Source: Bacteroidota bacterium
Lineage (GTDB): Bacteria > Bacteroidota > Bacteroidia > SXHM01
Assembly: GCA_947479755.1 (NCBI GenBank)
Contig: CANKAM010000008.1
Span: 37,880 to 101,879 of the forward strand
DNA length: 64,000 nucleotides
Direction of reading: 5' to 3'
The notes under the pieces are model-generated. The model was not told the DNA's origin. It worked only from the letters and a program-made list of their open reading frames with translations, and did no database searches. The translations under genes and the position numbers were made by a program. Below, piece by piece: positions 798 through 62,723 of this stretch; the stretch's first letter is position 1; each line of letters begins with the position of its first letter.

Positions 798-2654
798 ATG
801 ATCAGCATTTATAAATATGTGTTGCGCCTGCTGTTGTTCTGGCTCTGTGTTCTCTGTGTCAACCGCATTATCTTCCTTGTTACAACGCTTCATTTTGTTG
901 AAGGTGCATCGTATTCCGAAATAGCCTACTCATTGGTTTCCGGCCTTCGCCTCGACCTTTCAACCGTTTCGTATTTTGTAATTATTCCTTTTCTTTTTGC
1001 ATTTATTTACAGCATTACACAAGCTACGTTCTGGGTTAAACTGAGCCATGCAATCAGTTATTTCCTTATTGTAGCAAACAACCTTGTGAGCTTTGGCGAA
1101 ATAAGCCTGTATCAGGAATGGCACACGAAGGTTAATATACAAGCTTTACTGCACCTGCTGAACCCTGAAGAAGTGATTAAATATACTCCATGGGGATTGG
1201 TATTGCTTTTTCTTATTCCAATGGTATTGTTTACGTTTCTCTATATAAAAGCGTATCGGAAAGTTGTTAAACCTTTTCTTATTGCAACTAACACACCCGG
1301 AATAACTAAAAAGTTGGCGAGTACCCTGCTTTATCTTCCTTTAGCAGCTATGCTTTTTGTTTTTGTGCGAGGTGGTTTTCAGCGCTTTCCCCTTTCTGAG
1401 AGCGATGCTATTTATTCTAAACATCAGCCGCTGAATGATGCAGCAGTCAACTCAGTCCGCTACCTTACAAAAGATATTATTGAATACAATCATAACATGA
1501 ATTCAAATCCGCATCGCCATATGGATGGTGATAAAGCAAGGGCTATTCTCAAAGATATGTATTCCATTCCCCGCGATACCACTGAAATAATACTCACCAC
1601 ACTACGGCCAAACATTGTTATGATTGTGCTCGAAAGCTGGAGTGCAAATCTTTCTGCTGCTTTTGGCGGTGATGATTTTACTCCGTTCTTTGATAGTCTT
1701 GCCAATGAAGGTATAAAGTTTACTAATTTTTTTCCTGCGGGATATGTTTCTGATCAGGGCTTTCCTGCTATTCTCAGTTCTTATCCTTCTTCGTTTAAAA
1801 TCTCGGTTATCAATCAGCCTAAAAAAATCCCATCGCTGCCTTGCATTACCGATGATATTAAAAAGGCAGGCTACTACAATACTTTTGTTTATGCAGGAGA
1901 CCTGAACTTCGGCAATTTCAAGGCTTATGTTTATGACAAAGATTTTGATGCGGTGAAGCAGGAAATTGATTTTGATAAAGCTTTGCTGCGCGGCTCGCTG
2001 GGCATTCACGACCAGCCTATGGTTCCAGAAATTGCGGCCATATTGAATCAATCACCATCACCTTTTTTTGCTTGCTGGTATACGTTGAGCTCGCATGCGC
2101 CTTATGATTTTCCGCATCCGGAAAATACGCAGGGAGCCAGTGATTACGAACAATCGGTAAGCTATACGGATGATGCACTACGCATGTTTTTTAACAAGGT
2201 GAAAAATGAACCTTGGTATGATAACACCTTGTTTGTTCTGGTGGCAGACCACAGCCATGCAAGCCGTAAAAACTTTGATCTGGTGAATAAAGAATACCAC
2301 CGCATCCCTATGGCTTTTTTCGGCAACGCACTAAAACCCGAATGGAAAAAGAAGGAAATAAAATATGCCTTTTCGCACTTGGATATTACGCCCACACTTT
2401 TAAAGCAATTAGGTTTAAATGCTGAACATTACACCTGGGGAAAAGATATGTTTAACCCCACCGTTCCGCACTTTGCATATTACTGTTATTACTACGGTGC
2501 TGGCATGGTTACCGACAGCTGCTATGTAAGTCTCCATCGCGAACTGGACGACCCGCTTGACTATAAAGGAAAAACACCCGAAGAAATAGCAAAACTGACG
2601 GAACAGTTAAAAGCCTTTCAGCAGGTTTTTTATGATGATTTTTTGGCGCGGTAA
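798..2654 (+). CDS. LTA-synthase/sulfatase-family membrane phosphotransferase (alkaline phosphatase superfamily)
   Basis: Several N-terminal hydrophobic helices are followed by a sulfatase-type domain (IVMIVLESWSA, LVADHSHA). The 618-aa length is typical of LtaS/MdoB-like enzymes. Confidence 0.75.
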   Translation: MISIYKYVLRLLLFWLCVLCVNRIIFLVTTLHFVEGASYSEIAYSLVSGLRLDLSTVSYFVIIPFLFAFIYSITQATFWVKLSHAISYFLIVANNLVSFGEISLYQEWHTKVNIQALLHLLNPEEVIKYTPWGLVLLFLIPMVLFTFLYIKAYRKVVKPFLIATNTPGITKKLASTLLYLPLAAMLFVFVRGGFQRFPLSESDAIYSKHQPLNDAAVNSVRYLTKDIIEYNHNMNSNPHRHMDGDKARAILKDMYSIPRDTTEIILTTLRPNIVMIVLESWSANLSAAFGGDDFTPFFDSLANEGIKFTNFFPAGYVSDQGFPAILSSYPSSFKISVINQPKKIPSLPCITDDIKKAGYYNTFVYAGDLNFGNFKAYVYDKDFDAVKQEIDFDKALLRGSLGIHDQPMVPEIAAILNQSPSPFFACWYTLSSHAPYDFPHPENTQGASDYEQSVSYTDDALRMFFNKVKNEPWYDNTLFVLVADHSHASRKNFDLVNKEYHRIPMAFFGNALKPEWKKKEIKYAFSHLDITPTLLKQLGLNAEHYTWGKDMFNPTVPHFAYYCYYYGAGMVTDSCYVSLHRELDDPLDYKGKTPEEIAKLTEQLKAFQQVFYDDFLAR

Positions 2655-2655
2655 A

Positions 2656-3231
2656 TTAGCGTGATTTTAGAAACTCCACCAATTTCTCCACCGCCCTTGC
2701 CCGATGCGAAATTCGGTTTTTCTCTTCCAGAGTCATCTCCGCAAAAGTCTTTTCAAAGCCTGAAGGTTTAAAAATGGGGTCGTAACCAAAGCCATCCGTG
2801 CCATGCACTTCGCCTGTTATCTCACCATCCACCACGCCTTCAAAAAAATATTCCTTCTCCTCCAGCATAAGCGATATAACAGTGCGGAACTTTGCTGCGC
2901 GGTTGTCCTTGCCCTGCATTTCGTGCAGGAGCTTATTTACATTGTCAGCAAACGAACATTTTTCACCGGCATAGCGGGCGGAATACACACCGGGAGCGCC
3001 ATTCAGGGCTTCCACTTCTAAGCCTGTATCGTCTGCAAAGCAGTTAAGGTCGGTCAGCTCAAACACAAAGCGCGATTTAATAGACGCATTGCCCTCCAGC
3101 GTATCAGCCGTTTCGGGAATGTCTTCGTTTATGCCTGCATCGGCAAGCGTTACCAGGTTAATGCTGGCGGGAAGCAGCTTCTGCACTTCCTGCAATTTGT
3201 GTTTATTGTTGGTGGCAAAGATGAGTGTCAT
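2656..3231 (-). CDS. rdgB: dITP/XTP pyrophosphatase (RdgB/HAM1 family)
   Basis: [20 protein letters not shown] is a canonical RdgB N-terminus, and GFGYDPIF and SHRA motifs are present. I start at the internal ATG (3231) because the 25-codon extension to 3306 is encoded by an interspersed repeat. Confidence 0.85.
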
Positions 3232-3242
3232 AGTTTGAATAA

Positions 3243-3320
3243 CGTCATGCTGAACTTGTTTCAGCATCTTAACAGAAAGGATACTTACAGCAAGATCCCG
3301 AAACAAGTTCGGGATGACGG
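3243..3320. repeat. Interspersed double-hairpin palindromic element, family A (copy 1 of 3)
   Basis: The sequence is CGTCATGCTGAACTTGTTTCAGCATC ... CCCGAAACAAGTTCGGGATGACGG. The arms are mutual inverted repeats and each arm is itself a hairpin. Near-identical copies lie at 46690-46751 and 62724-62788. Confidence 0.85.
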
Positions 3321-3349
3321 TAAAAATTATATTTTTCGCAATATTACCC

Positions 3350-3357
3350 TAAATTTG
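3350..3357 (+). promoter_or_regulatory. Candidate Bacteroidota sigma-A -7 box (TAnnTTTG) for gmd operon
   Basis: TAAATTTG ends 20 nt before the gmd ATG. The same spacing recurs at several other genes in the window. Confidence 0.4.
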
Positions 3358-3377
3358 CCACCTTATAAAAACAACAG

Positions 3378-4490
3378 ATGAAGAAAGCACTGATAACAGG
3401 CGTAACAGGACAGGACGGAGCCTATCTCTCCGAATTTTTATTGAATAAAGGCTACGAAGTTCACGGAATAAAAAGAAGAAGTTCGCTCTTCAATACCGAC
3501 CGTATTGACCATATCTACGAAGACCCGCACCAGAAAGGCGCACGCTTTAAACTGCACTATGGAGATCTGAGCGATTCAAGCAATATTATCCGCATCATTC
3601 AGGAAGTAAAACCTGATGAAATTTATAATCTGGGAGCTATGTCGCATGTGAAGGTGAGCTTTGAATCACCGGAATATACTGCCGATGTAGATGGACTGGG
3701 CGCATTGCGCGTGCTGGAAGCTGTCCGCTTATTGGGTCTGGAAAAAACAACACGCATTTATCAGGCTTCTACTTCGGAATTGTATGGTCTGGTGCAGGAA
3801 GTTCCGCAAAGCGAAACAACACCTTTTTACCCGCGCTCGCCTTACGGTGTTGCCAAATTATACGGCTACTGGATAACCGTAAATTACCGCGAGGCCTATG
3901 GTATGTTTGCAGCTAACGGCATCTTGTTCAATCACGAAAGTCCTATAAGAGGGGAAACATTTGTATCGCGCAAAATTACAAGAGCTGTATCGCGCATTGC
4001 ATTGGGCCTGCAGGAAAAATTGTATATCGGAAACCTGGATGCCAAACGTGATTGGGGACATGCCAAAGATTATGTAGAAGCCATGTGGCTGATGATGCAG
4101 CAGGATGTTGCCGAAGACTTTGTTATTGCAACGGGAGTAACTACTATGGTTCGCGATTTTATAACATTGGCGTTCCGCCATGTGGGCATTGAAATTGAAT
4201 ATAAAGGCGAAGGAGTAAAAGAAACAGCTACAGTTGTTTCATCTTCTAATCCCGATTATTATGTGAAGCCGGGAACAGAGGTGTTGGCGGTGGATGAAAA
4301 ATATTTCCGTCCTTCGGAAGTGGAATTATTAATTGGTAACCCAACAAAGGCAAATACAAAACTCGGCTGGAAACCCAAACACGATTTACACTCGTTGATT
4401 AATGATATGATGGAGTCGGATTTGGAAGTAATGCGCAAGGAAAAAAGCCTTTCAGACAGCGGCTACAAGGTGAAGAACTATTACGAATAA
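3378..4490 (+). CDS. gmd: GDP-mannose 4,6-dehydratase
   Basis: [22 protein letters not shown]... and the 370-aa length are near-canonical for Gmd throughout, and fcl follows immediately. Confidence 0.95.
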
Positions 4491-4517
4491 ACTTAACGGA
4501 AAATCAGCTTAAATAAA

Positions 4518-4543
4518 CTTTGCGCTCTTTGCGCCTTTGCGAG
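4518..4543 (+). repeat. Cluster of three CTTTGCG heptamers (short interspersed motif, family D)
   Basis: CTTTGCGCTCTTTGCGCCTTTGCGAG lies 10 nt upstream of the fcl start. A four-copy cluster of the same heptamer lies at 57270-57310. Confidence 0.6.
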
Positions 4544-4552
4544 AAATAAAAC

Positions 4553-5503
4553 TTGAGAAAAGAAGGAAAAATATACATAGCTGGCCACCGCGGAATGGTA
4601 GGCTCTGCTATTCACAGAAAACTGAAAGCAGAAGGTTTCTCCAACTTTGTGTTTCGTACATCTGCTGAATTAGATTTGCGCAATCAGCAAGCGGTAAATG
4701 ATTTTTTTGCGGCAGAAAAACCGGACTATGTTTTTCTTGCTGCTGCCAAAGTTGGCGGCATTCAGGCCAACAATGTTTATCGTGCTGATTTTATTTACGA
4801 GAACCTGATGATTGAATGCAATGTCATTCATGCAGCTTACGCAAATAAAACGGAGAAGCTGATGTTTCTGGGCTCTTCCTGCATCTACCCGAAACTTGCA
4901 CCACAACCACTGAAAGAAGATTACCTGCTCACAGGCTTGCTGGAACAAACCAACGAGCCTTATGCCATCGCTAAAATTGCAGGAATAAAATTATGTGACT
5001 CGTATCGCAAGCAATACGGATGCAATTTCATTTCGGTAATGCCAACCAATCTGTATGGGCCGAATGATAATTATGATTTAGAAAAATCGCATGTGCTTCC
5101 GGCATTGATTCGCAAATTTCATGAAGCAAAAGTGGCAGGAAAAAGTGAAGTTGAAATATGGGGAAGCGGTACACCTTTACGTGAATTTTTGCATGTGGAT
5201 GATTTGGCCGATGCCTGCTATTACCTGATGCAGAACTACAATGAAGAAGGCCTTGTTAACATTGGTACAGGTAGCGACCTTTCTATTAAAGACCTTGCCC
5301 TGTTGGTGAAAAAGATTGTAGGCTTTAACGGTGAGTTGAAATTTAACGCATCAAAACCCGATGGCACACCCCGCAAGCTGATGGACGTAAGCAAACTTCA
5401 CTCCTTCGGTTGGAAACATAAGATAGATCTGGAACAGGGGATAACCATGGTTTACAGCGATCCTCAAACCGTTAGCAAGTTTCAAAAAGTAACTGTAGCC
5501 TGA
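4553..5503 (+). CDS. fcl: GDP-L-fucose synthase (GDP-4-keto-6-deoxymannose 3,5-epimerase/4-reductase)
   Basis: [15 protein letters not shown] matches the N-terminus of E. coli Fcl. An SDR fold with YAIAKIAG is present. It uses a TTG start and is adjacent to gmd. Confidence 0.9.
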
Positions 5504-5510
5504 TAACCGG

Positions 5511-7157
5511 ATGAAGAGCCGGTTGACACAAAAAGCACTTTTTTACCTTCTTCTTTCTGTCCTGCTGATATTGGTTTATCCGCTCGACCTTTATTTCCCC
5601 ACCGGCAACCAGTGCATCTATTTTTTCTGGGGAATAAAGAACAGCGGTTTCGGCTTTCTTGAACACGATTTTCTTGCCACGCAGGCCGACCCTTTTCCTT
5701 TGTTTTCGTGGCTGGTGCAGTATTCATACAGTTTCTTTGGTTTCAATAGTTTCTTGTTTTGGTATTGGTTGCTTAATCTGGTTTATGTTATTGCTGTTTT
5801 TGAAATTGCAGAAGAAGTAAGCAAACAGCTTTCGCTAAAGTTGAATAAACTGTTGTTTACAACACTTTTCCTTTTTGCTAATTCTACATTCATCTGGGGC
5901 TTCTTCTTTTCCCGTTTCTTCAACATTGATTTACGCTGGGCGTGGGACTCCGGGTTTGCAGAACAGGGAATTCTGAGGGGTTATTTTCAGCCTTCAGTTT
6001 TCGGGGGTTTTATTTTGTTGTCGGTTGCCCTGTTTGCGAAAAGAAGATTTGTCCTGGCATTTGTTTCGGCAGCAATTGCAGCTTGTTTTCACGCAAATTA
6101 TCTGCTCGTCAGTGCGGTATTCATAAGCGTTTATCTTTTGTTTTTAGTAAAAGAAAAGAACTACAAAACAGCAATCATTGGCGGTGTTGTTTCGCTAGCG
6201 ATTGTCCTTCCTTATCTGCTTTATGTTCTCAAAAATTTCGGAGCATCTTCTCCTGAAACTGTAGAATATATCCGCAATATTATCAAAGGCCATATTCACT
6301 TTGATTACAAGGTGTGGATGAATGCGGAGGCGTTTTTGCAAATGACTTTAATTGTCTTTGCGATGTGGCCGGTCAGAAAAACTGCTTTGTTTTTCCCATT
6401 GTTAATTGGCTTATTGGTACTTGTTTTACTTACCTTAATCACGTATGCTTCAGGTAGCATTTTTCTGTTGAACTTAACTCCCTGGAGAATATCGGTGGTG
6501 CTTGTTCCGGTTGCGGTTGCAGTTGTTGTTGCACACCTTTCATCAATCACAAATGTTAAGCTTGGAAGTCTGATTATTTCCATTGTTCTTACAGCAACGC
6601 TCTCAGCTTTATACTTCCGCATTTTCGGGAATAACTCAAGTGATTTTATCTTGAAATGGAGAATTCTAACGCTTATTGTTTTTATTTCAACGCTTGGCTT
6701 TTTGTTTCTTTTAGAGAAGTATTTGCCTAACCTGAATTTTATAAGTATTACTCCTTTAGCTGCACTGTTTCTTATTGTTTGTCTTGGTTTGTCAGGAATT
6801 CTGCTTCATAAAAACGATACTGAAAACGAGAAGGAATTAATGACTTTCGTCCGAAAGAATAGTTCGGAGAAGCAGCACTATTTTATACCACCAGAAATGA
6901 CGGATTTCAGGCTTTCAACAGGTGTTCCTGTGTTTGTTGACAGTACTATCTATCACAGCAATGCATTGCCTGAATGGGATAAACGGATAAAAATTGCCAA
7001 TCGTTTTTTTGCTGCAAGCGATACTGTTTTGTTAGATTCATTGGTCAGAAATTGCGGTATTACCCATATCATTGCAAAAGAGGATTTTGATTTTAATGAG
7101 AGTAACGAAGTTTACCGTAACAAGCGATACGCTATTTTTGAAGTAAGTGAACAGTAA
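5511..7157 (+). CDS. Polytopic membrane protein of unknown function with C-terminal soluble domain (possibly GT-C-like glycan-modifying enzyme)
   Basis: There are about 12 predicted hydrophobic helices followed by a ~100-aa hydrophilic tail. It sits between fcl and wzm. I recognise no diagnostic motif. Confidence 0.45.
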   Translation: MKSRLTQKALFYLLLSVLLILVYPLDLYFPTGNQCIYFFWGIKNSGFGFLEHDFLATQADPFPLFSWLVQYSYSFFGFNSFLFWYWLLNLVYVIAVFEIAEEVSKQLSLKLNKLLFTTLFLFANSTFIWGFFFSRFFNIDLRWAWDSGFAEQGILRGYFQPSVFGGFILLSVALFAKRRFVLAFVSAAIAACFHANYLLVSAVFISVYLLFLVKEKNYKTAIIGGVVSLAIVLPYLLYVLKNFGASSPETVEYIRNIIKGHIHFDYKVWMNAEAFLQMTLIVFAMWPVRKTALFFPLLIGLLVLVLLTLITYASGSIFLLNLTPWRISVVLVPVAVAVVVAHLSSITNVKLGSLIISIVLTATLSALYFRIFGNNSSDFILKWRILTLIVFISTLGFLFLLEKYLPNLNFISITPLAALFLIVCLGLSGILLHKNDTENEKELMTFVRKNSSEKQHYFIPPEMTDFRLSTGVPVFVDSTIYHSNALPEWDKRIKIANRFFAASDTVLLDSLVRNCGITHIIAKEDFDFNESNEVYRNKRYAIFEVSEQ

Positions 7158-7980
7158 GGATAACACATTTGTAATTGACGCGAACAGCAGAACACCGCTT
7201 AATCTGAAAGAGATTTGGGAGTTTCGTGAGTTGCTTTACTTTTTTGCATGGCGTGATATTAAGGTAAAGTACAAGCAGACCTTTTTAGGCGTTACCTGGG
7301 CTTTTATTCAGCCTTTTCTGATGATGCTGGTGTTGAATATTTTTTTCGGACAGATGTTGCATTTCCCTTCAGAGACTTTGCCTTATTCGGTTTTTGCTTT
7401 TACAGGTCTAATCATCTGGAATATTTTTTCAAGCGGCACCATCAATTCGAGTAACAGCATGTTGACAAATGCGGTGATTATAAAAAAGAATTATTTCCCG
7501 CGTATTATACTTCCGCTTGCAGCTGTTATTGTTTCTCTTTTTGATTTTATGGTTTCGTTCATTCTGTTCGGTGGCTTACTCATCTGGTTCAGAGTATTGC
7601 CGGACTTCTTCCGGTTTATTGCATTCTTTCCGCTTGCTGTGATAATTGCATTGATTACAACAATCGGTACAGGAGTAATAATCGGTGCCATGAGCATCCG
7701 TTTCCGCGACTTCAGAATTGTAATGCCTTTTCTTATTCAACTTTTACTTTTCATCACTCCGGTTATTTATCCCATTTCGGCAATCTCTAATAAAACATTG
7801 TATTATGTGCTTGCATTAAATCCCATGGCCGGTGCTATAAGTCTTGCACGCGCAGCGCTTACGTATAATCCTGTTGACTGGACGATAATTGCAATTAGCG
7901 GTGGAATGGCAGTTTTTATTTTCATTCTTGGATTGCTTGTATTTAAAAAGAACGAAACACTGATTTCAGATTTAGCATAA
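7147..7980 (+). CDS. wzm: ABC-2 type polysaccharide exporter permease (Wzm), set 1
   Basis: LNLKEIWEFRELLYFFAWRDIKVKYKQTFLGVTWAFIQP is the typical Wzm/ABC-2 signature, with six hydrophobic segments. A GTG start overlaps the upstream gene by 11 nt. Confidence 0.8.
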   Translation: MNSKDNTFVIDANSRTPLNLKEIWEFRELLYFFAWRDIKVKYKQTFLGVTWAFIQPFLMMLVLNIFFGQMLHFPSETLPYSVFAFTGLIIWNIFSSGTINSSNSMLTNAVIIKKNYFPRIILPLAAVIVSLFDFMVSFILFGGLLIWFRVLPDFFRFIAFFPLAVIIALITTIGTGVIIGAMSIRFRDFRIVMPFLIQLLLFITPVIYPISAISNKTLYYVLALNPMAGAISLARAALTYNPVDWTIIAISGGMAVFIFILGLLVFKKNETLISDLA

Positions 7981-16801: not shown

Positions 16802-17716
16802 TCACTGTTTTCGGAATAAACATAATAATTTACCTACTAAGGACTTCGTTGCTGTAGGTTTATTTTTTTTTCGTAAGAATCTATTAAAATAATTTTCGTC
16901 AGCTGCTGTGTTTAGATAAATTTCAGTTGGATGAAGTAGTTTACTTCCTATACTCGTAGTTTTTATTTCAGCAAGTGGTGATATTTCCTTAGTGTGGGTT
17001 GCATCTTCGCTAAAGCCAATATTTGTAACAAGATTTTCATTTGGTAGAATTGTTATTCCGTTGTTTTGCCATATTGAATAAAGCCATTGGTAATCCCAGG
17101 TATCTATTTGCTGTTTTTTTACTTTAGTAAAAATATTTACCCAGTAATCATATTCATCATTTGAAAGATAGAAATTAAATTCTTTAGATTTCAAGGAATT
17201 CTCCAAATAATTTAAATCAATGTCATACTTCTTCCAAGCTCTGCCCCAAGTTGCCCAGCCCCAAATATGGGCATGTTTTGAAAAGTAATACGTGTCGGAA
17301 GTTTTATTTTCGCCATTTTGAAAATTATTTCCACTAATGTGCATTATGTTTTCATTACTCCGGTATATATCCAATAATATTTCGCAAAAAGTAAAAAAAC
17401 TCTGATCAGGCAAACAATCATCTTCCAATATTATCCCCTCTTCCACATTATCAAAAAACCAGTTAATTGCTGAGCTAACAGCATCGCGGCAGCCAATATT
17501 TTTATCCCTGAACAGAGTTTTTACTTCGCATTTCCAGTCAATTTTGTTTAAAATGCTACGTACCTCTTCGCATTTTTTTGCTTCTCCTTCTTTATCTGGT
17601 CTTGGGCCGTCTGCTGCAATATATAGTTGATTGGGTTGGGCCTTACGTATTTCTTCAAAAACACGGAAGGTAAGTTCGGGGCGGTTAAAAATGAGGAATA
17701 ATACGGGCGTCTTCAA
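16802..17716 (-). CDS. GT2-like nucleotide-diphospho-sugar transferase (HlpA-like family)
   Basis: VLFLIFNRPELTFRVFEEIRKAQPNQLYIAADGPR ... ILEDDCLP matches this widespread family. It must start at TTG, because a stop lies four codons upstream. Confidence 0.6.
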   Translation of the reverse strand: MKTPVLFLIFNRPELTFRVFEEIRKAQPNQLYIAADGPRPDKEGEAKKCEEVRSILNKIDWKCEVKTLFRDKNIGCRDAVSSAINWFFDNVEEGIILEDDCLPDQSFFTFCEILLDIYRSNENIMHISGNNFQNGENKTSDTYYFSKHAHIWGWATWGRAWKKYDIDLNYLENSLKSKEFNFYLSNDEYDYWVNIFTKVKKQQIDTWDYQWLYSIWQNNGITILPNENLVTNIGFSEDATHTKEISPLAEIKTTSIGSKLLHPTEIYLNTAADENYFNRFLRKKNKPTATKSLVGKLLCLFRKQ

Positions 17717-17773
17717 AATATCTTTTTACTGTTAAAACGTGTAAAGATAATTTATCATACATTCTTGTAAAAA

Positions 17774-17812
17774 TAAAAAAGCAGTCCCGCAATTCTGCGG
17801 GACTGCTTTTTC
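17774..17812. terminator. Bidirectional intrinsic terminator
   Basis: The stem is GCAGTCCCGC-aattct-GCGGGACTGC, flanked by an A-run on the left and a T-run on the right. It sits 18 nt past the stop of the minus-strand FN3 gene. Confidence 0.8.
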
Positions 17813-17829
17813 TTTCTGCACACTCAAAT

Positions 17830-18507
17830 CTATTTTGCTCTAACCTGAGCTATGTCACTCATAGCTCCGTGTCCGGTGGCGCCAAGCGCCCTTACACGAA
17901 ACTGATAAATGTGACCACTGATGAGGTTTGTAGCCTTGTACCTCGATGCGGTTACGGATTGAAGATGTTTCCATTCTCCGTTTCCCGCACCGGGGGTAGG
18001 TGTGCCGGGCATACCCGGAAGCATGCTCGCATTTCCACCATCACCGGTGAAGCCCAGATCTTTATATTCAAGCTCGAAAGCTTTGGCTGCTGTAACAGGA
18101 TCCCAACTCAAGTCGATTTCGCCTTCGGTAAGCGTACTTTCTGCCACAAGGTTTTGCACCTGTGTCATCTGGACTTTTGGTCCGCGTTGCTTCCTCAGTT
18201 CAAAACCCGAACTGATGATCTTATCAGCATCCCCATTGCTTGCGCTCTGAATATAGGCAGCAAGTTGCTTGATCAGCAATCTCAACTCTTTATCCCTCAG
18301 ATTCCTTGCGATTATCAGATTGCGGTCAAAGGCAGCGGCAGCGGTTATGGCGTTGCTCAGTGCGGTAATGGCCGCAAGAAAGGTCACAAGGTCAGGAATG
18401 GGAGTGAGAAAATTTGCATTTCCGGTCAGTTTACCGTGTAGGAGGGTGGCTTTTGCCGCCAACTGAACAGGATTTAGTCCGGAAGTTCCAACTTTAACAT
18501 TTGCCAT
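17830..18507 (-). CDS. Helical N-domain + fibronectin type III-like C-domain protein, no signal peptide (paralog 1)
   Basis: The C-terminus (IDLSWDPV...YKATNLISGHIYQFRVRALG) is FN3-like. The N-half aligns with the product of 51999-52715 (GNxxF..P.P, LAxYV...A.G....I..SGF). The gene is visibly more GC-rich than its neighbours. Confidence 0.7.
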   Translation of the reverse strand: MANVKVGTSGLNPVQLAAKATLLHGKLTGNANFLTPIPDLVTFLAAITALSNAITAAAAFDRNLIIARNLRDKELRLLIKQLAAYIQSASNGDADKIISSGFELRKQRGPKVQMTQVQNLVAESTLTEGEIDLSWDPVTAAKAFELEYKDLGFTGDGGNASMLPGMPGTPTPGAGNGEWKHLQSVTASRYKATNLISGHIYQFRVRALGATGHGAMSDIAQVRAK

Positions 18508-18600
18508 TTTACTGGATGTTCGTTGCCGGGATGCGCCCGGTGACGCCTTTCCCGCTTTGTGCGGGGTTCACTTGTAAGATGCAGCACCTGGTTAAAAGGA
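18508..18600 (-). promoter_or_regulatory. GC-rich structured 5' leader candidate
   Basis: In minus-strand sense, CCCGC-ACAAA-GCGGG and CCGGG-CGCAU-CCCGG hairpins lie immediately upstream of the ATG, set within an otherwise AT-rich 650-bp spacer. Confidence 0.35.
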
Positions 18601-18710
18601 ACAAAATGAATTGTTAAAATTTGTTAAAAAGTGTTTTCTTTTTCTTTTATACGTTAGCTTAAATCAATGAAAACCCAATGGTGTAAAGGGTTTTGGTTAT
18701 TCCTATTTTT

Positions 18711-18960
18711 ATAATTTAGTTTTGCTTGTATTGATATAAAAAGCAATTCTTCAATTGTGTTTTTGCTTTTGTAAATAAAGAAAAGCCTTGCTTTAATAGT
18801 GAATTTGCTTTTTTTTAATTATAAAAAATGCGTTTACAAGTATGTTTTTGCTTTCTATAATTAACGAAGGTGTTTACTTAATAATGAATTTGCTTTTTAA
18901 AATTAAGAAAAGAGCTTACTTAATTATGTAACTGTTAATTTCTATTTAATAAAGCTGTTC
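18711..18960. repeat. Degenerate tandem array with ~42-bp period (about 6 units)
   Basis: Exact TTTGCTT heptamers start at 18721, 18762, 18804, 18847 and 18889 (spacings 41/42/43/42). A second motif, CTTnAATnnTG, occurs at 18749, 18791, ~18834, 18877 and 18919. Confidence 0.7.
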
Positions 18961-19131
18961 TTAAACAAAATAGTTACTTAGTTTGGTTATTTAAGCAGGT
19001 TAAATTAAAATGATGTGATGCACTCTGATTATATAAGCGTTTTAATCTCGCACTTATTTATTATATTACAAATATAATTTATTTGCAATTTCATAAATTT
19101 TCTACATTAACAATGGATTGTAATATTCTTA

Positions 19132-19139
19132 TATTTTTG
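19132..19139 (+). promoter_or_regulatory. Candidate -7 box (TAnnTTTG) for the GT2/GT-C operon
   Basis: TATTTTTG ends 20 nt before the ATG at 19160. Confidence 0.4.
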
Positions 19140-19159
19140 CGGATTGTTAGCATTTAATT

Positions 19160-19906
19160 ATGATACTGAATAAAAAACTGATAGTAGTTTTGCCTGCCTA
19201 TAACGCTGCACTAACTCTGGAAAAAACATACAGCGAAATTCCTTTTGAAGTTGTAGATGATGTGGTATTGGTTGATGATGCCAGCAGTGATAACACCTCT
19301 GAAATTGGCAGCAAATTAGGAATTAAACACATTATCAGACACGAAAAAAATAAAGGCTATGGTGGCAACCAGAAAAGCTGCTACGATAAAGCGCTTGAAC
19401 TGGGTGCCGATATAGTTATCATGCTTCATCCTGATTATCAGTATACGCCTATGCTTATACAACCCATGGCTCATATTATTGCGAGTAATCTCTACCCGGT
19501 TGTATTGGGTTCGCGAATTCTTGGTAAGGGCGCTTTAAAGGGCGGTATGCCACTTTATAAATACATTTTTAACAGGTGTCTTACCCTTACTCAAAATATT
19601 CTGATGGGACAGAAACTTAGTGAGTACCATACCGGATATCGTGCATTTTCAAAAGAAGTACTTACTGCAATTGACTATCATGCAAACAGTGATGATTTTG
19701 TTTTTGATAATCAGATGCTTGCCCAGATATTTTATGCAGATTTTGAGATAGCCGAAGTAACCTGCCCTACCAAGTATTTTGACGAAGCATCATCCATTAA
19801 TTTTAAACGCAGTTCAATCTATGGATTAGGTGTATTGGCAACATCCCTTCAGTATTTTTTGGCAAAAGCAGGCATTATTAAACCGGCCATCTTCAAGAAA
19901 AAATGA
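19160..19906 (+). CDS. GT2 polyprenyl-phosphate glycosyltransferase (GtrB/ArnC/DPM1-like)
   Basis: VVLPAYNAALTLEKT ... VLVDDASSDNT ... MLHPDYQY is the short (248 aa) soluble GT2 form. GT-C-type membrane proteins follow directly. Confidence 0.75.
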   Translation: MILNKKLIVVLPAYNAALTLEKTYSEIPFEVVDDVVLVDDASSDNTSEIGSKLGIKHIIRHEKNKGYGGNQKSCYDKALELGADIVIMLHPDYQYTPMLIQPMAHIIASNLYPVVLGSRILGKGALKGGMPLYKYIFNRCLTLTQNILMGQKLSEYHTGYRAFSKEVLTAIDYHANSDDFVFDNQMLAQIFYADFEIAEVTCPTKYFDEASSINFKRSSIYGLGVLATSLQYFLAKAGIIKPAIFKKK

Positions 19907-51998: not shown

Positions 51999-52715
51999 TT
52001 ACCCTTCCACCACTTTTTTGCTTACCACCACGCTTAGCGGGCTTACACCGCCTGCATTAGTAGCCCAGTAATACAAATAGTAGGTAGTGCCTACCGTCAG
52101 GTTGATGAATGTTTTTTTACGGTTCTTATTTAAATCAATGATGCCGCGCAGGGCTGCCTGAGCTATAGCAGCACCCGCTGCTGCCTCATTATCATTAATA
52201 ATAAGCTGTCCCAGTCCATTCATGGTTACCCATGCAGGTAGTTCCTCATCTGCCGTTAGTATAGTACTGTAGCTGTCGGCACCCGAAACCACTGCACAAT
52301 CGGCCAGCAGCTCACCTGCTCCACCTCGGGTAAGTGTTGCCCCTGTGGGTTGAAGCGGTGCACTAATTGGAGTAAGGTTGCTTTTAGTAGGCGTAAAACC
52401 TGCCAGAATAATGGTGTTTGGATTACCCAATGCCACCGTGTTTACATACACTGCCAGTGTATCCAAAGCAGCCATCAGGGCTTTCTTAGCTTCTTTATAC
52501 GGGCCAAGCTGTGCGGTGCCGCCTGCCTTATGAGCGGAAAGTTTGTTAATAAAATCGGTTAGCAATGCCTGAAATAGTGCTTCGGTCATTGGCGGCATTA
52601 CAAAAATCAAAGGATTTCCGAATATGCCGTTTTTTACGATGTTGGCAAATGTTTCTATCAGGTCTCTTTTTAAAGTATGATAGACAAGTTTGCATCTGAT
52701 TAATAGTTGTGCCAT
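51999..52715 (-). CDS. Helical N-domain + FN3-like C-domain protein, no signal peptide (paralog 2)
   Basis: The N-half aligns with 17830-18507 (GIFGNPLIFVMPPM..., LAVYVNTVALGNPNTIILAGFTPTK). The C-terminus is a beta-rich FN3-like region (TTYYLYYWATNAGGVSP). Confidence 0.65.
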   Translation of the reverse strand: MAQLLIRCKLVYHTLKRDLIETFANIVKNGIFGNPLIFVMPPMTEALFQALLTDFINKLSAHKAGGTAQLGPYKEAKKALMAALDTLAVYVNTVALGNPNTIILAGFTPTKSNLTPISAPLQPTGATLTRGGAGELLADCAVVSGADSYSTILTADEELPAWVTMNGLGQLIINDNEAAAGAAIAQAALRGIIDLNKNRKKTFINLTVGTTYYLYYWATNAGGVSPLSVVVSKKVVEG

Positions 52716-52812
52716 GATTAGTATATTTATTAGTTAATGATTTTTATTGTTTTTAAATTGTATCAAAAAACACGCTTCGTTTAGTTGAGTTTTAGTGCAA
52801 AGTGTCTTTCAG

Positions 52813-53064
52813 GTAAGAGCAACTGTCTTTGGAGTTACTCTACAGGTCTTTGAAGTAAGACCAACTATCTTTGGAGTTACTCAACAGGTCTTTGAAGTAA
52901 GACCAACTGTCTTTTGAGTTACTCAACAAGCCTTTAAAGTAAGAGCAACTGTCTTTTGAGTTACTCAACAAGCCTTTGAAGTAAGAGCAACTGTCTTTTG
53001 AGTTACTCAACAAGCCTTTGAAGTAAGAGTAACTGTCTTTCGGGTTACTCAACAAGCCTTTGAA
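52813..53064. repeat. Tandem array of six exact-length 42-bp units (plus decayed partial units on both sides, ~52790-53100)
   Basis: The units start at 52813, 52855, 52897, 52939, 52981 and 53023. Units 4 and 5 are identical and the others differ from them at 2-5 positions. Each unit contains the palindrome GAGT-T-ACTC. Confidence 0.95.
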
Positions 53065-53257
53065 GTAAGTTCAACTGTGCTTTGCGTAAGTTTAAAGGTA
53101 ATATGCGCCTTAGAAAAGGCAAATGTTAGTATTCCAGTATGTCAAAGAGCGCTGTCAACAAACCGTGTTTGTAATTGACGGCACAAAAATGCCCCATAGT
53201 GCCAACACTACCTTAGACCTTTACAATAAATTTAAAGAAGAGAATTAGACAAAAAGG

Positions 53258-53998: not shown

Positions 53999-54060
53999 AG
54001 TTTGAAATTTTTGAATTAGGGGTAGCTAAATTAATAACTTTTTCTTAAACGGCAAATTTT

Positions 54061-54260: not shown

Positions 54261-54414
54261 TAGGCAAGTTTACCAGACGACACCATCAACGGTTAATCAA
54301 CGGGCTGACCACCCAACAGTGACAGACAAAAAATAAAAGTGGAGACCAGCAACCACTATAAAAACGGGGCGACACCGAAAAGCCTAATGTGTAGAAGAAG
54401 GAAATAAGGAATTA

Positions 54415-62712: not shown

Positions 62713-62723
62713 AATTAACCGTT

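Follow-up and report, generated by a model that had tools for sequence, protein, structure and literature searches.

LytTR-type regulators such as AgrA, ComE, and PlnC use 9-bp direct repeats with a 12- to 13-bp spacer, and one pair of these repeats, rarely two, is positioned close to the −35 site. Tandem units also form plasmid iterons and centromeres, for instance sopC of F (12 × 43 bp) and parC of R1. Stem-loops at the 5' terminus stabilize mRNAs, as in the leaders of ompA and of S-layer genes. Stringer et al. reportedly described in 2020 untranslated arrays under boxA/Nus anti-termination, namely, rRNA leaders and the leaders of clustered regularly interspaced short palindromic repeats (CRISPR). 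The closest documented geometry for the locus described here is that of BvgA at the Bordetella promoters Pptx and Pfha, with six dimers at 22-bp intervals along one face of Pptx (PMC7250471), which provides a precedent for a phased platform on one face of the DNA helix. The locus in question, locus A, consists of a gene for a 225-amino-acid (aa) protein with an FN3 domain (the FN3 gene) and a tandem array of 42-bp units upstream of it (array A). It is located in a stretch of 64,000 nucleotides (nt) from a Bacteroidota bacterium (contig CANKAM010000008.1), the whole of which is called the window, and a second, distantly related gene-plus-array locus (locus B) is present in the same window. The region between positions 17775 and 18967 is best explained as a single-gene expression unit that is autonomous and has been resident for a long time where two divergent glycan operons meet.

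The FN3 gene and its 42-bp array

The FN3 gene is the minus-strand open reading frame (ORF) from 17830 to 18507. The spacer 5' of it comprises 652 bp with a G+C content (GC) of 23% and ends at position 19160 with the start of a divergent gene, assigned to the glycosyltransferase family GT2 by a Pfam match. An earlier reading of the bare sequence (the original prediction) had named this spacer as the largest noncoding stretch of the window, but it is the third largest ORF-free gap, behind 930 bp at 53999 and 656 bp at 62713. The elements of the locus are the following, with the position weight matrix (PWM) being built from the five core units of the array:

17775-17812, minus strand: intrinsic terminator with a 17-bp stem (8 G-C pairs) followed by a T-run (terminator scan; ends of RNA contigs)
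17830-18507, minus strand: gene of the 225-aa FN3 protein (translation, Pfam fn3, AlphaFold2 models, RNA depth)
18508-18569, minus strand: 5' leader with two GC hairpins (leader alignment; the 5' limit at 18569 is a deduced and not a mapped position)
18570-18611, minus strand: putative core promoter region with a conserved TGCAT ... (T/C)GAA block (alignment; placed by means of the RNA 5' limit)
18612-18627, minus strand: direct repeat TTAACA-N4-TTAACA at about −120 relative to the ATG (alignment of 8 loci)
18670-18694, no strand: inverted repeat AAAACCC-N11-GGGTTTT between array and promoter (read from the sequence)
18716-18925, no strand: core array of five units of 41 to 43 bp (autocorrelation, half-site alignment, PWM)
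18926-18967, no strand: sixth unit, weak, continuing the phase of the five core units (PWM score of 6.9 versus a 95% null of 6.5, phase 0)
18968-19159, plus strand: rest of the spacer, outside the cassette, presumably holding the promoter of the divergent GT2 operon (promoter-like sites at 19107-19135; Pfam match of GT2)

The 42-bp period had been proposed from five TTTGCTT heptamers at 18721, 18762, 18804, 18847, and 18889. All five are exact, their spacings are 41, 42, 43, and 42 bp, and there is no other copy between 18500 and 19160. Autocorrelation, which had been suggested as a check, gave a z-score of 5.3 for lag 42 in the region 18600-19100 and of 6.7 in 18700-18930, and the observed maximum was reached by none of 500 shuffles; the next peaks were at lags 84 and 85. 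The program Tandem Repeats Finder independently reported a 42-bp period at 18847-18928, which are the two best-matching units. A second proposed motif, CTTnAATnnTG, stood only in part: it is exact at 18749 and 18791, one base short at 18877 and 18919 (CTTAATAATG, CTTAATTATG), and degenerate near 18834.

Each unit of array A is composed of two 21-bp halves, one with the half-site AAAAGCAAA(A/T)(A/T)C and the other with an oppositely oriented half-site of the AAAAG(T/A)G type, and contains a run of five to eight A's and a run of four to six T's about 21 bp apart. The units are AT-rich and degenerate, about 55 to 80% alike. Five to six of them are located 209 to 460 bp upstream of the ATG of the FN3 gene, and the distance of the array from the GT2 start (193 to 230 bp) is similar to that from the FN3 start. 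A CRISPR array was ruled out because the units are contiguous and degenerate, and the Rfam model CRISPR-DR42 matched with only E = 8.8 and 19.8 bits compared to the required 40. Rfam gave nothing at the gathering threshold over the leader and array (17700-19200). The sole Rfam match in the window was a DUF805 RNA motif at 54334-54401 on the plus strand (75.8 bits versus a gathering score of 51.1).

Comparison with close relatives revealed how array A changes. In X11, a relative of about 93% identity, a 35-nt back-step plus 7 nt at 18785/18751 amounts to exactly one additional 42-bp unit. Both X9 and X11 lack one T of the T8 run, by which the 43-bp unit of the window becomes 42 bp long. This is the only 1-nt insertion or deletion (indel) inside the array, and several other 1-nt indels fall into the nonarray part of the spacer. 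The number of units varies by exact 42-bp steps, as seen from the one-unit difference in X11. The shared half-sites and the indels that either comprise whole units or restore the register suggest that array A is maintained by selection or concerted evolution.

Related genes and arrays across phyla

Three sets of related loci, given here as L numbers, were examined: orthologues at 92, 74, and 57% identity; 24 loci from contigs of one genome per species (Bacteroidota, Blastocatellia, Pyrinomonadaceae, Bryobacteraceae, and records labeled Planctomycetes and Verrucomicrobiota); and three family B loci (L010, L012, and L014). The period of a locus was taken as the lag with the strongest autocorrelation over the 700 bp preceding the gene, with a z-score of at least 4 and dinucleotide-shuffled controls. 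The top lag was 21, 42, 63, or 84 bp in 27 of the 32 loci, from several phyla including Bacteroidota and Acidobacteriota, with 5 to 18 units per array in the family. The unit sequences were unrelated between lineages, so the earlier claim that the period and not the sequence is conserved holds across phyla. Because arrays are present in so many loci, each with a different sequence, the array accompanies the gene and not the glycan locus.

Locus A had also been described as a second copy of the unit in locus B, with the two proteins being paralogs. Pairwise BLAST of the 225-aa against the 238-aa protein of locus B (gene at 51999-52715) was marginal (E = 0.004), but hhalign of family A versus family B gave a probability of 98.7% and an E value of 1.6e-16 over 197 columns, from end to end, at 19% identity. 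"Paralog" is therefore correct but remote. Proteins with a helical plus an FN3 domain would thus represent a superfamily in several phyla, which is our own grouping and not a published family. A profile search of 1.84 billion proteins with full-length alignment was swamped by giant multi-FN3 proteins and gives no family size; a scan of metagenome contigs for close relatives yielded 2 loci only; and neither a third FN3-family copy nor a paralogue of the locus B regulator was found in the window. No published description of the pairing of 21- or 42-bp arrays with this gene family was found in a full-text literature search.

Despite the turnover of the units, four independent orthologue groups share half-site motifs. 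The half-site AAAAGCAAAAAC is common to the groups window/L016, L001/L017, L040, and L003, while AAACACTTTT occurs in all of these and in L041. Within the orthologue clade, AAAAGCAAAAAC alternates with AAACACTTTTC every 21 bp, and the 42-bp period is explained by the reverse complement of AAACACTTTTC, which has a similar AAAAG(T/C)(G/A) core. The reverse complement of AAACACTTTT, AAAAGTGTTT, repeats every 21 bp in L007, where AAAAGTG is a direct repeat every 21 bp. The array of L024 contains 17.6 units of 21 bp at 93% identity (ATGTCGTTGCTATCATTGTTA), and that of L027 is composed of TTCCAATCGGAA palindromes; both are without A-tracts, and the period is kept. Units of the form AAAACAAT.T.GTTTT are found in L028 and L034, and A/T runs are present in many other arrays, too.

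The neighbors of the related loci vary and include GerE, HTH_3, YjbR, TIR, or leucine-rich repeat proteins, or none of these. L007, at 57% identity, is located beside genes for an N6/N4 DNA methyltransferase, an AIPR protein, and a HinfI-type endonuclease (1940-7245), and the array is still present. A family member in L019 (1437-2678) adjoins a gene for a TIR-domain protein, so that two defense-type neighborhoods are known together with L007. The 94% copy in a glycan locus (L016) and the 57% copy in a restriction-modification locus (L007) were both derived from the same metagenome-assembled genome, JBFWYU01; the two clades are therefore within-genome paralogues, each with its own array. A conserved protein of 100 to 190 aa is encoded upstream of the array in Pyrinomonadaceae and other Acidobacteriota (L026, 2588-3073; L029, 2815-3387; L030, 635-1000; L035, 176-490), with the motif ...ICRAGDEP..SAALLVLMATLE..DPK.LAN..KH.AFTRCGELN.... 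Pfam gave no significant match for those of L026 and L029. This small protein is a candidate for a cognate partner.

Pfam fn3 (PF00041) was the only Pfam match in the 225-aa protein (27.0 bits versus a cutoff of 25, residues 116-222), and fn3 was matched in 24 of 26 family members. The AlphaFold2 model contains an N-terminal helical bundle (residues about 13-99) of three long helices and a short fourth one and a C-terminal FN3 sandwich (about 116-223), which contains a disordered loop rich in Pro, Gly, and Thr (residues 155-167, PGTPTPG) that exists only in this Bacteroidia clade. For the whole protein, the predicted local distance difference test score was 86.5; the N-domain reached 90.4, with a predicted template modeling score of 0.81. 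Foldseek with the whole model retrieved FN3 structures only (E of about 1e-7), and the N-domain alone had no match among PDB folds (best E = 2.1). Searches of PHROGs, NCBIfam, PADLOC, and PDB sequences gave FN3 matches only, weak ones for PHROGs and none for PADLOC. The protein is without a signal peptide. Its N-domain has a net charge of about +7 in the window copy, as counted from the translation, and by inspection the positive charge seems not to be kept in the family consensus. As a guess, it may be an abundant structural protein that is cytoplasmic or unconventionally exported.

The original prediction regarded the unit as a cassette inserted into the glycan locus and considered a functional tie to the surface glycan. 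The insertion was not supported. The flanks of L016 (94% identity) are orthologous to those of the window, with 97.6% identity for GT2, 61% for a 550-aa membrane protein, and 59% for the downstream gene of a 304-aa protein. The orthologues at 92, 77, and 73% identity also sit within polysaccharide loci: all orthologues down to 73% do so and have a divergent gene upstream. The 304-aa gene and further glycan genes of the window recur in L041 and L003, and L001 and L017 are located among different glycan genes. The sequence comparison thus indicates that the cassette is not a recent insertion but a stable anchor inside loci with shuffled glycan genes, and that linkage to glycan loci is limited to the orthologue clade. 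The 304-aa gene itself (16802-17716, minus strand) has no Pfam match and is located directly downstream of the FN3 terminator; in L016, L041, and L003 it is kept adjoining or near the FN3 gene at 59 to 68% identity while the other glycan genes vary.

Base composition leads in the same direction. The FN3 gene had been claimed to be richer in GC than its flanks, and with 49.7% compared to 23% in the spacer and 31 to 38% in the flanking genes, it is. This high value is due to Ala- and Gly-rich codons, which also keep the antisense frames open; the three antisense ORFs mentioned before exist and encode 190, 82, and 65 aa. GC is 38.6% for the whole window, 34 to 36% in the glycan stretch, and 40 to 44% outside it. 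At third codon positions, the GC fraction is 0.47 in the FN3 gene, 0.47 to 0.49 in two measured genes outside the glycan locus, and 0.26 to 0.34 in the glycan neighbors. The glycan genes are the low-GC outliers and the FN3 gene matches the outside genes, which also points away from a recent insertion. A functional tie of the FN3 gene to the surface glycan is unproven. Conserved linkage within the orthologue clade speaks for it; the position of the 57% relative L007 next to restriction-modification and AIPR genes, the family B loci L010, L012, L014, and locus B of the window without glycan-gene neighbors, and the expression of the FN3 gene, which the RNA contigs show to be uncoupled from the flanking operons, are contrary to it.

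Transcription and possible function of array A

The RNA data were assembled metatranscriptome contigs from 15 runs, originating from relatives mostly 90 to 99% identical, which are unstranded and without true 5' ends. RNA of the FN3 gene was detected in wastewater, river, sludge, biofilter, and freshwater metatranscriptomes. The contigs covered 17798-18555 and nothing else within 17700-19300, and the longest one reached a point 48 nt upstream of the start codon. In one study, the depth along 20 kb of the glycan locus was about 170 to 200 for the FN3 gene and 0 to 5 in every other bin. Because the contigs extend no farther than from the terminator to a point some 48 nt 5' of the start codon and the neighbors are at least 40 times lower, the gene is monocistronic, as predicted. 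No contig was found over array A or over the 160 unique nt between array A and the hairpins at a depth of about 200-fold for the gene. Three freshwater runs of the window's own organism contained one contig only, from a relative, inside the FN3 gene. Contig ends at 18522-18529 coincide with an insertion polymorphism and are not RNA ends.

Locus B differs in this respect. Freshwater contigs of the same organism with 100% identity covered 52656-52921 and 52958-53097; the one at 52656-52921 leads from inside the 238-aa gene through the leader into the 42-bp array, and two more are located inside the array. Array B is therefore transcribed, unlike array A. No RNA contigs were found between 53100 and 53750. 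A boxA-like sequence, GCTCTTTGACAT, precedes the arrays in locus B of the window and in L014. A GerE-type regulator adjoins the array of L014, and the regulator at locus B of the window had only a weak helix-turn-helix match (E = 0.16).

A private promoter with a leader is assigned to the FN3 gene because conserved elements exist between the array and the ATG and because the longest RNA contig includes only 48 nt 5' of the ATG. The leader contains hairpin 1 (CCCGC-ACAAA-GCGGG, 18551-18565) and hairpin 2 (CCGGG-CGCAT-CCCGG, 18526-18540), followed in the orthologue clade by AACGAACATCCAG between the hairpins and the ATG. The leader, of about 60 nt, is almost invariant in the orthologues; among those at 92 to 94%, a stretch of about 55 nt differs at a single base. 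One compensatory pair in L003 (CCTGC/GCAGG) and one G.U-compatible change in L007 agree with the hairpins; two one-sided changes (L007 and L040/41) disrupt them, and the structural evidence is thin. Conservation beyond the need of a generic hairpin suggests that an additional specific ligand or protein may be involved. No viral contig contained the 22-mer of the leader. A MITE-like element (miniature inverted-repeat transposable element) of 167 to 200 nt with the terminal inverted repeats GAGGTTkTTTAyAATTAA is located between hairpin 2 and the start codon in L017 (3822-3988) and in metagenome X9 (window 18519-18522) and is present in RNA contigs.

Upstream of the hairpins, at a fixed distance of about 47 nt, TTAACA-N4(5)-TTAACA occurs in 8 of 8 loci of the orthologue clade, and the copy at 18612-18627 is the only exact TTAACA-N4-TTAACA in the window. 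It resembles boxA (ACTTTTTAACAA versus GCTCTTTAACAA, 10 of 12 positions, at −125), is positioned after the array, and no RNA contig reaches it. A copy with one mismatch (TTTACACGTTTTAACA) is located at 17730-17745 on the minus strand, upstream of the 304-aa gene and 14 nt from its start. A sigma-54 promoter was rejected: none of 29 loci had a GG-N10-GC with up to two mismatches between its array and its gene. Likewise, no consistent sense-strand box of the canonical Bacteroidota promoter (TTG ... TAnnTTTG) was found before or after the arrays. The sense strand carries TATATTTG at −569 in the window and −611 in L016. The inverted repeat at 18670-18694 is largely kept in L016, with one base altered in the right arm (GGGTTTT to GAGTTTT). 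It was not scored by the terminator scan, and it could insulate transcription in either direction. Downstream of the gene, a strong bidirectional terminator had been predicted. Its stem and T-run exist on the gene strand, the only strand on which the scan scored it, and RNA contigs of a relative of about 96% identity end within it at 17798-17806; that it may be bidirectional is suggested by its flanking A-run and T-run.

With about an even chance, array A is a phased DNA platform for an oligomerizing regulator upstream of a strong private promoter. It would act as DNA and not as RNA, offering sites lined up along one helical face, with two half-sites per 42 bp, or four helical turns. A sequence-specific, oligomerizing regulator, which would be encoded elsewhere for this type of locus and next door in family B loci, is predicted to bind these sites and to switch the private promoter about 100 bp downstream of the array; the hairpin at the 5' end of the mRNA might then stabilize the message. 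A role as DNA is favored because RNA of array A was not found, the sense strand of the array gave no folding signal (z = −1.0), and a period of integral turns is physically meaningful for DNA. RNA folding of sense versus antisense strands of the arrays across loci likewise revealed no sense-strand bias.

Several observations weigh against this platform model. No regulator gene adjoins array A. The array and the promoter are separated by a gap of about 100 bp without a unit in phase: the PWM found none between the end of the array at −209 and the promoter or gene, whereas BvgA-type arrays run up to −35. The distance from the last unit to TTAACA is 100, 112, 142, and 107 bp among orthologues, which is not constant in helical turns, unlike in BvgA promoters. 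The FN3 gene has no recognizable promoter consensus among the sigma-54 and Bacteroidota boxes scanned. The contig data are unstranded, from relatives, and without true 5' ends, and a long leader that is processed is possible. Finally, array B is transcribed and family B arrays end 42 to 172 bp before the ATG, so that a role as DNA only may be restricted to a part of the superfamily.

The main rival for locus A assumes that array A is transcribed as in locus B, from a promoter upstream of 18925 into a long untranslated leader, which would serve as an RNA decoy or protein-binding repeat with anti-termination of the boxA type and cleavage of the mRNA at the hairpins. RNA contigs of the same organism over array B, GCTCTTTGACAT upstream of the arrays in locus B and L014, the match of the TTAACA element of clade A to boxA, and the upstream sense-strand TATATTTG are in agreement with such a transcript. 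It is nevertheless unlikely, since no contig covers array A or the unique 160 nt up to the hairpins at the depth of the gene, the boxA-like element of clade A follows the array and could not protect it there, the array RNA has no structure signal, and a strict 21-bp period has no obvious meaning for RNA. An array that functions as structural DNA without a dedicated regulator would have its phased A- and T-tracts curve the DNA, attract nucleoid proteins or RNA polymerase, and boost or insulate the promoter. The A and T runs about 21 bp apart in every unit and in many other arrays, the low GC of the spacer, and the extremely high expression of the FN3 gene fit this explanation, but L024 and L027 keep the period without A-tracts, and the conserved half-sites here and palindromes elsewhere point to sequence-specific recognition, which renders it rather improbable.

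The half-sites could also be recognized by the helical-plus-FN3 protein itself or its complex, with the array as a centromere-like landing pad for autoregulation or local assembly. Coinheritance of gene and array across phyla regardless of the neighbors or an adjacent regulator, a unit sequence of its own for each paralogue, the charge of the N-domain, and the flexible position of the array with respect to the promoter (A versus B) would be explained. This is quite improbable, because the N-domain resembles no DNA-binding fold, its charge seems not to be conserved, genes for a partition ATPase or another partner are missing from the vicinity, and the adjacent helix-turn-helix regulators in family B loci are simpler candidates. 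The earlier note leaned toward an array that belongs to the divergent GT2 operon and the glycan locus, with the FN3 gene as a passenger or a substrate of glycosylation. The similar distances to both starts, the polysaccharide loci around all orthologues of at least 73% identity with their divergent upstream gene, and the additional Pro/Thr-rich loop in this clade could be read that way. However, the array remains coupled to the FN3 gene whichever divergent neighbor is present (GT2, DegT aminotransferase, or DNA methyltransferase), superfamily arrays also occur outside glycan loci, and the flanking glycan genes are far lower in RNA. The 225-aa protein has no signal peptide, and we know of no protein glycosylation in Bacteroidota that acts before export. 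This assignment is very unlikely. A neutral, decaying minisatellite without function would account for degenerate units in AT-rich DNA but hardly for the same period in 27 of 32 loci with unrelated sequences, for a register kept despite decay, or for indels of whole units or such that restore the register, and is extremely unlikely.

We hold it possible but doubtful that the arrays represent an undescribed class of bacterial cis-elements across phyla: fast-evolving and private to a paralogue, carrying their information not in a common sequence but in helical phase (21 bp and its multiples) and in a unit number that differs between strains by whole units, inherited with the helical-plus-FN3 family, and here setting the output of one of the strongest promoters of the cell within a variable surface-glycan locus. 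If the pairing is functional, a regulatory design present in several phyla is currently missed by genome annotation. Its parts are an uncharacterized gene family, an mRNA level far above that of the neighbors (in one comparable study), and a helically phased array with turnover of its sequence. This would be a natural system to study promoter output as a function of phase and site number, the tuning of strains by gain or loss of whole units, and the role of the protein. The copy described here adds the contrast to the transcribed array B, a length polymorphism of one unit, and a stable home in shuffled glycan loci.

Comparison with known systems

The transcript of the FN3 gene resembles the mRNAs stabilized by 5' stem-loops in that it is very abundant and monocistronic, with a GC-rich hairpin at or near the 5' end and a strong terminator. 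It differs by a leader that is conserved far beyond a generic hairpin. BoxA/Nus-dependent arrays are similar to locus B, where a boxA-like 12-mer is followed by a transcribed, untranslated array, and to locus A with its boxA-like TTAACA repeat. In locus A, however, this element is downstream of the array and no array RNA was detected, and spacers and cas genes are absent.

LytTR sites share the center-to-center period of 21 to 22 bp, and direct-repeat arrays exist here in L007 and L024; a LytTR gene was not found adjoining any of the examined loci. Iterons and centromeres are likewise tandem units of about 21 or 42 to 43 bp with a dyad, fast-evolving and private to one replicon or gene, and are positioned next to the gene of their binding protein. 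Locus A, in contrast, is chromosomal, and no gene for Rep, ParA, or ParB is located beside the FN3 gene, which is flanked by glycosyltransferase and similar genes; nor does the FN3 protein itself match families of this kind. Moreover, several arrays of different sequence exist here in one genome, each in front of a paralogue of the same small protein.

The BvgA-dependent promoters Pfha and Pptx remain the nearest relatives in design. BvgA belongs to the NarL/GerE family, and a GerE-type regulator adjoins the homologous array of L014 in family B. In both cases, weak or medium sites form a row two helical turns apart upstream of one promoter, and each unit is a head-to-head pair of half-sites, here with half-sites every 21 bp or so and units of 41 to 43 bp. 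The differences are that array A stops about 100 bp short of the promoter while BvgA sites abut the −35 site, that no regulator adjoins array A and binding is only proposed here, that 5 to 18 units are present compared to 3 to 6, and that an array of changing sequence is coinherited with a single protein family across phyla.

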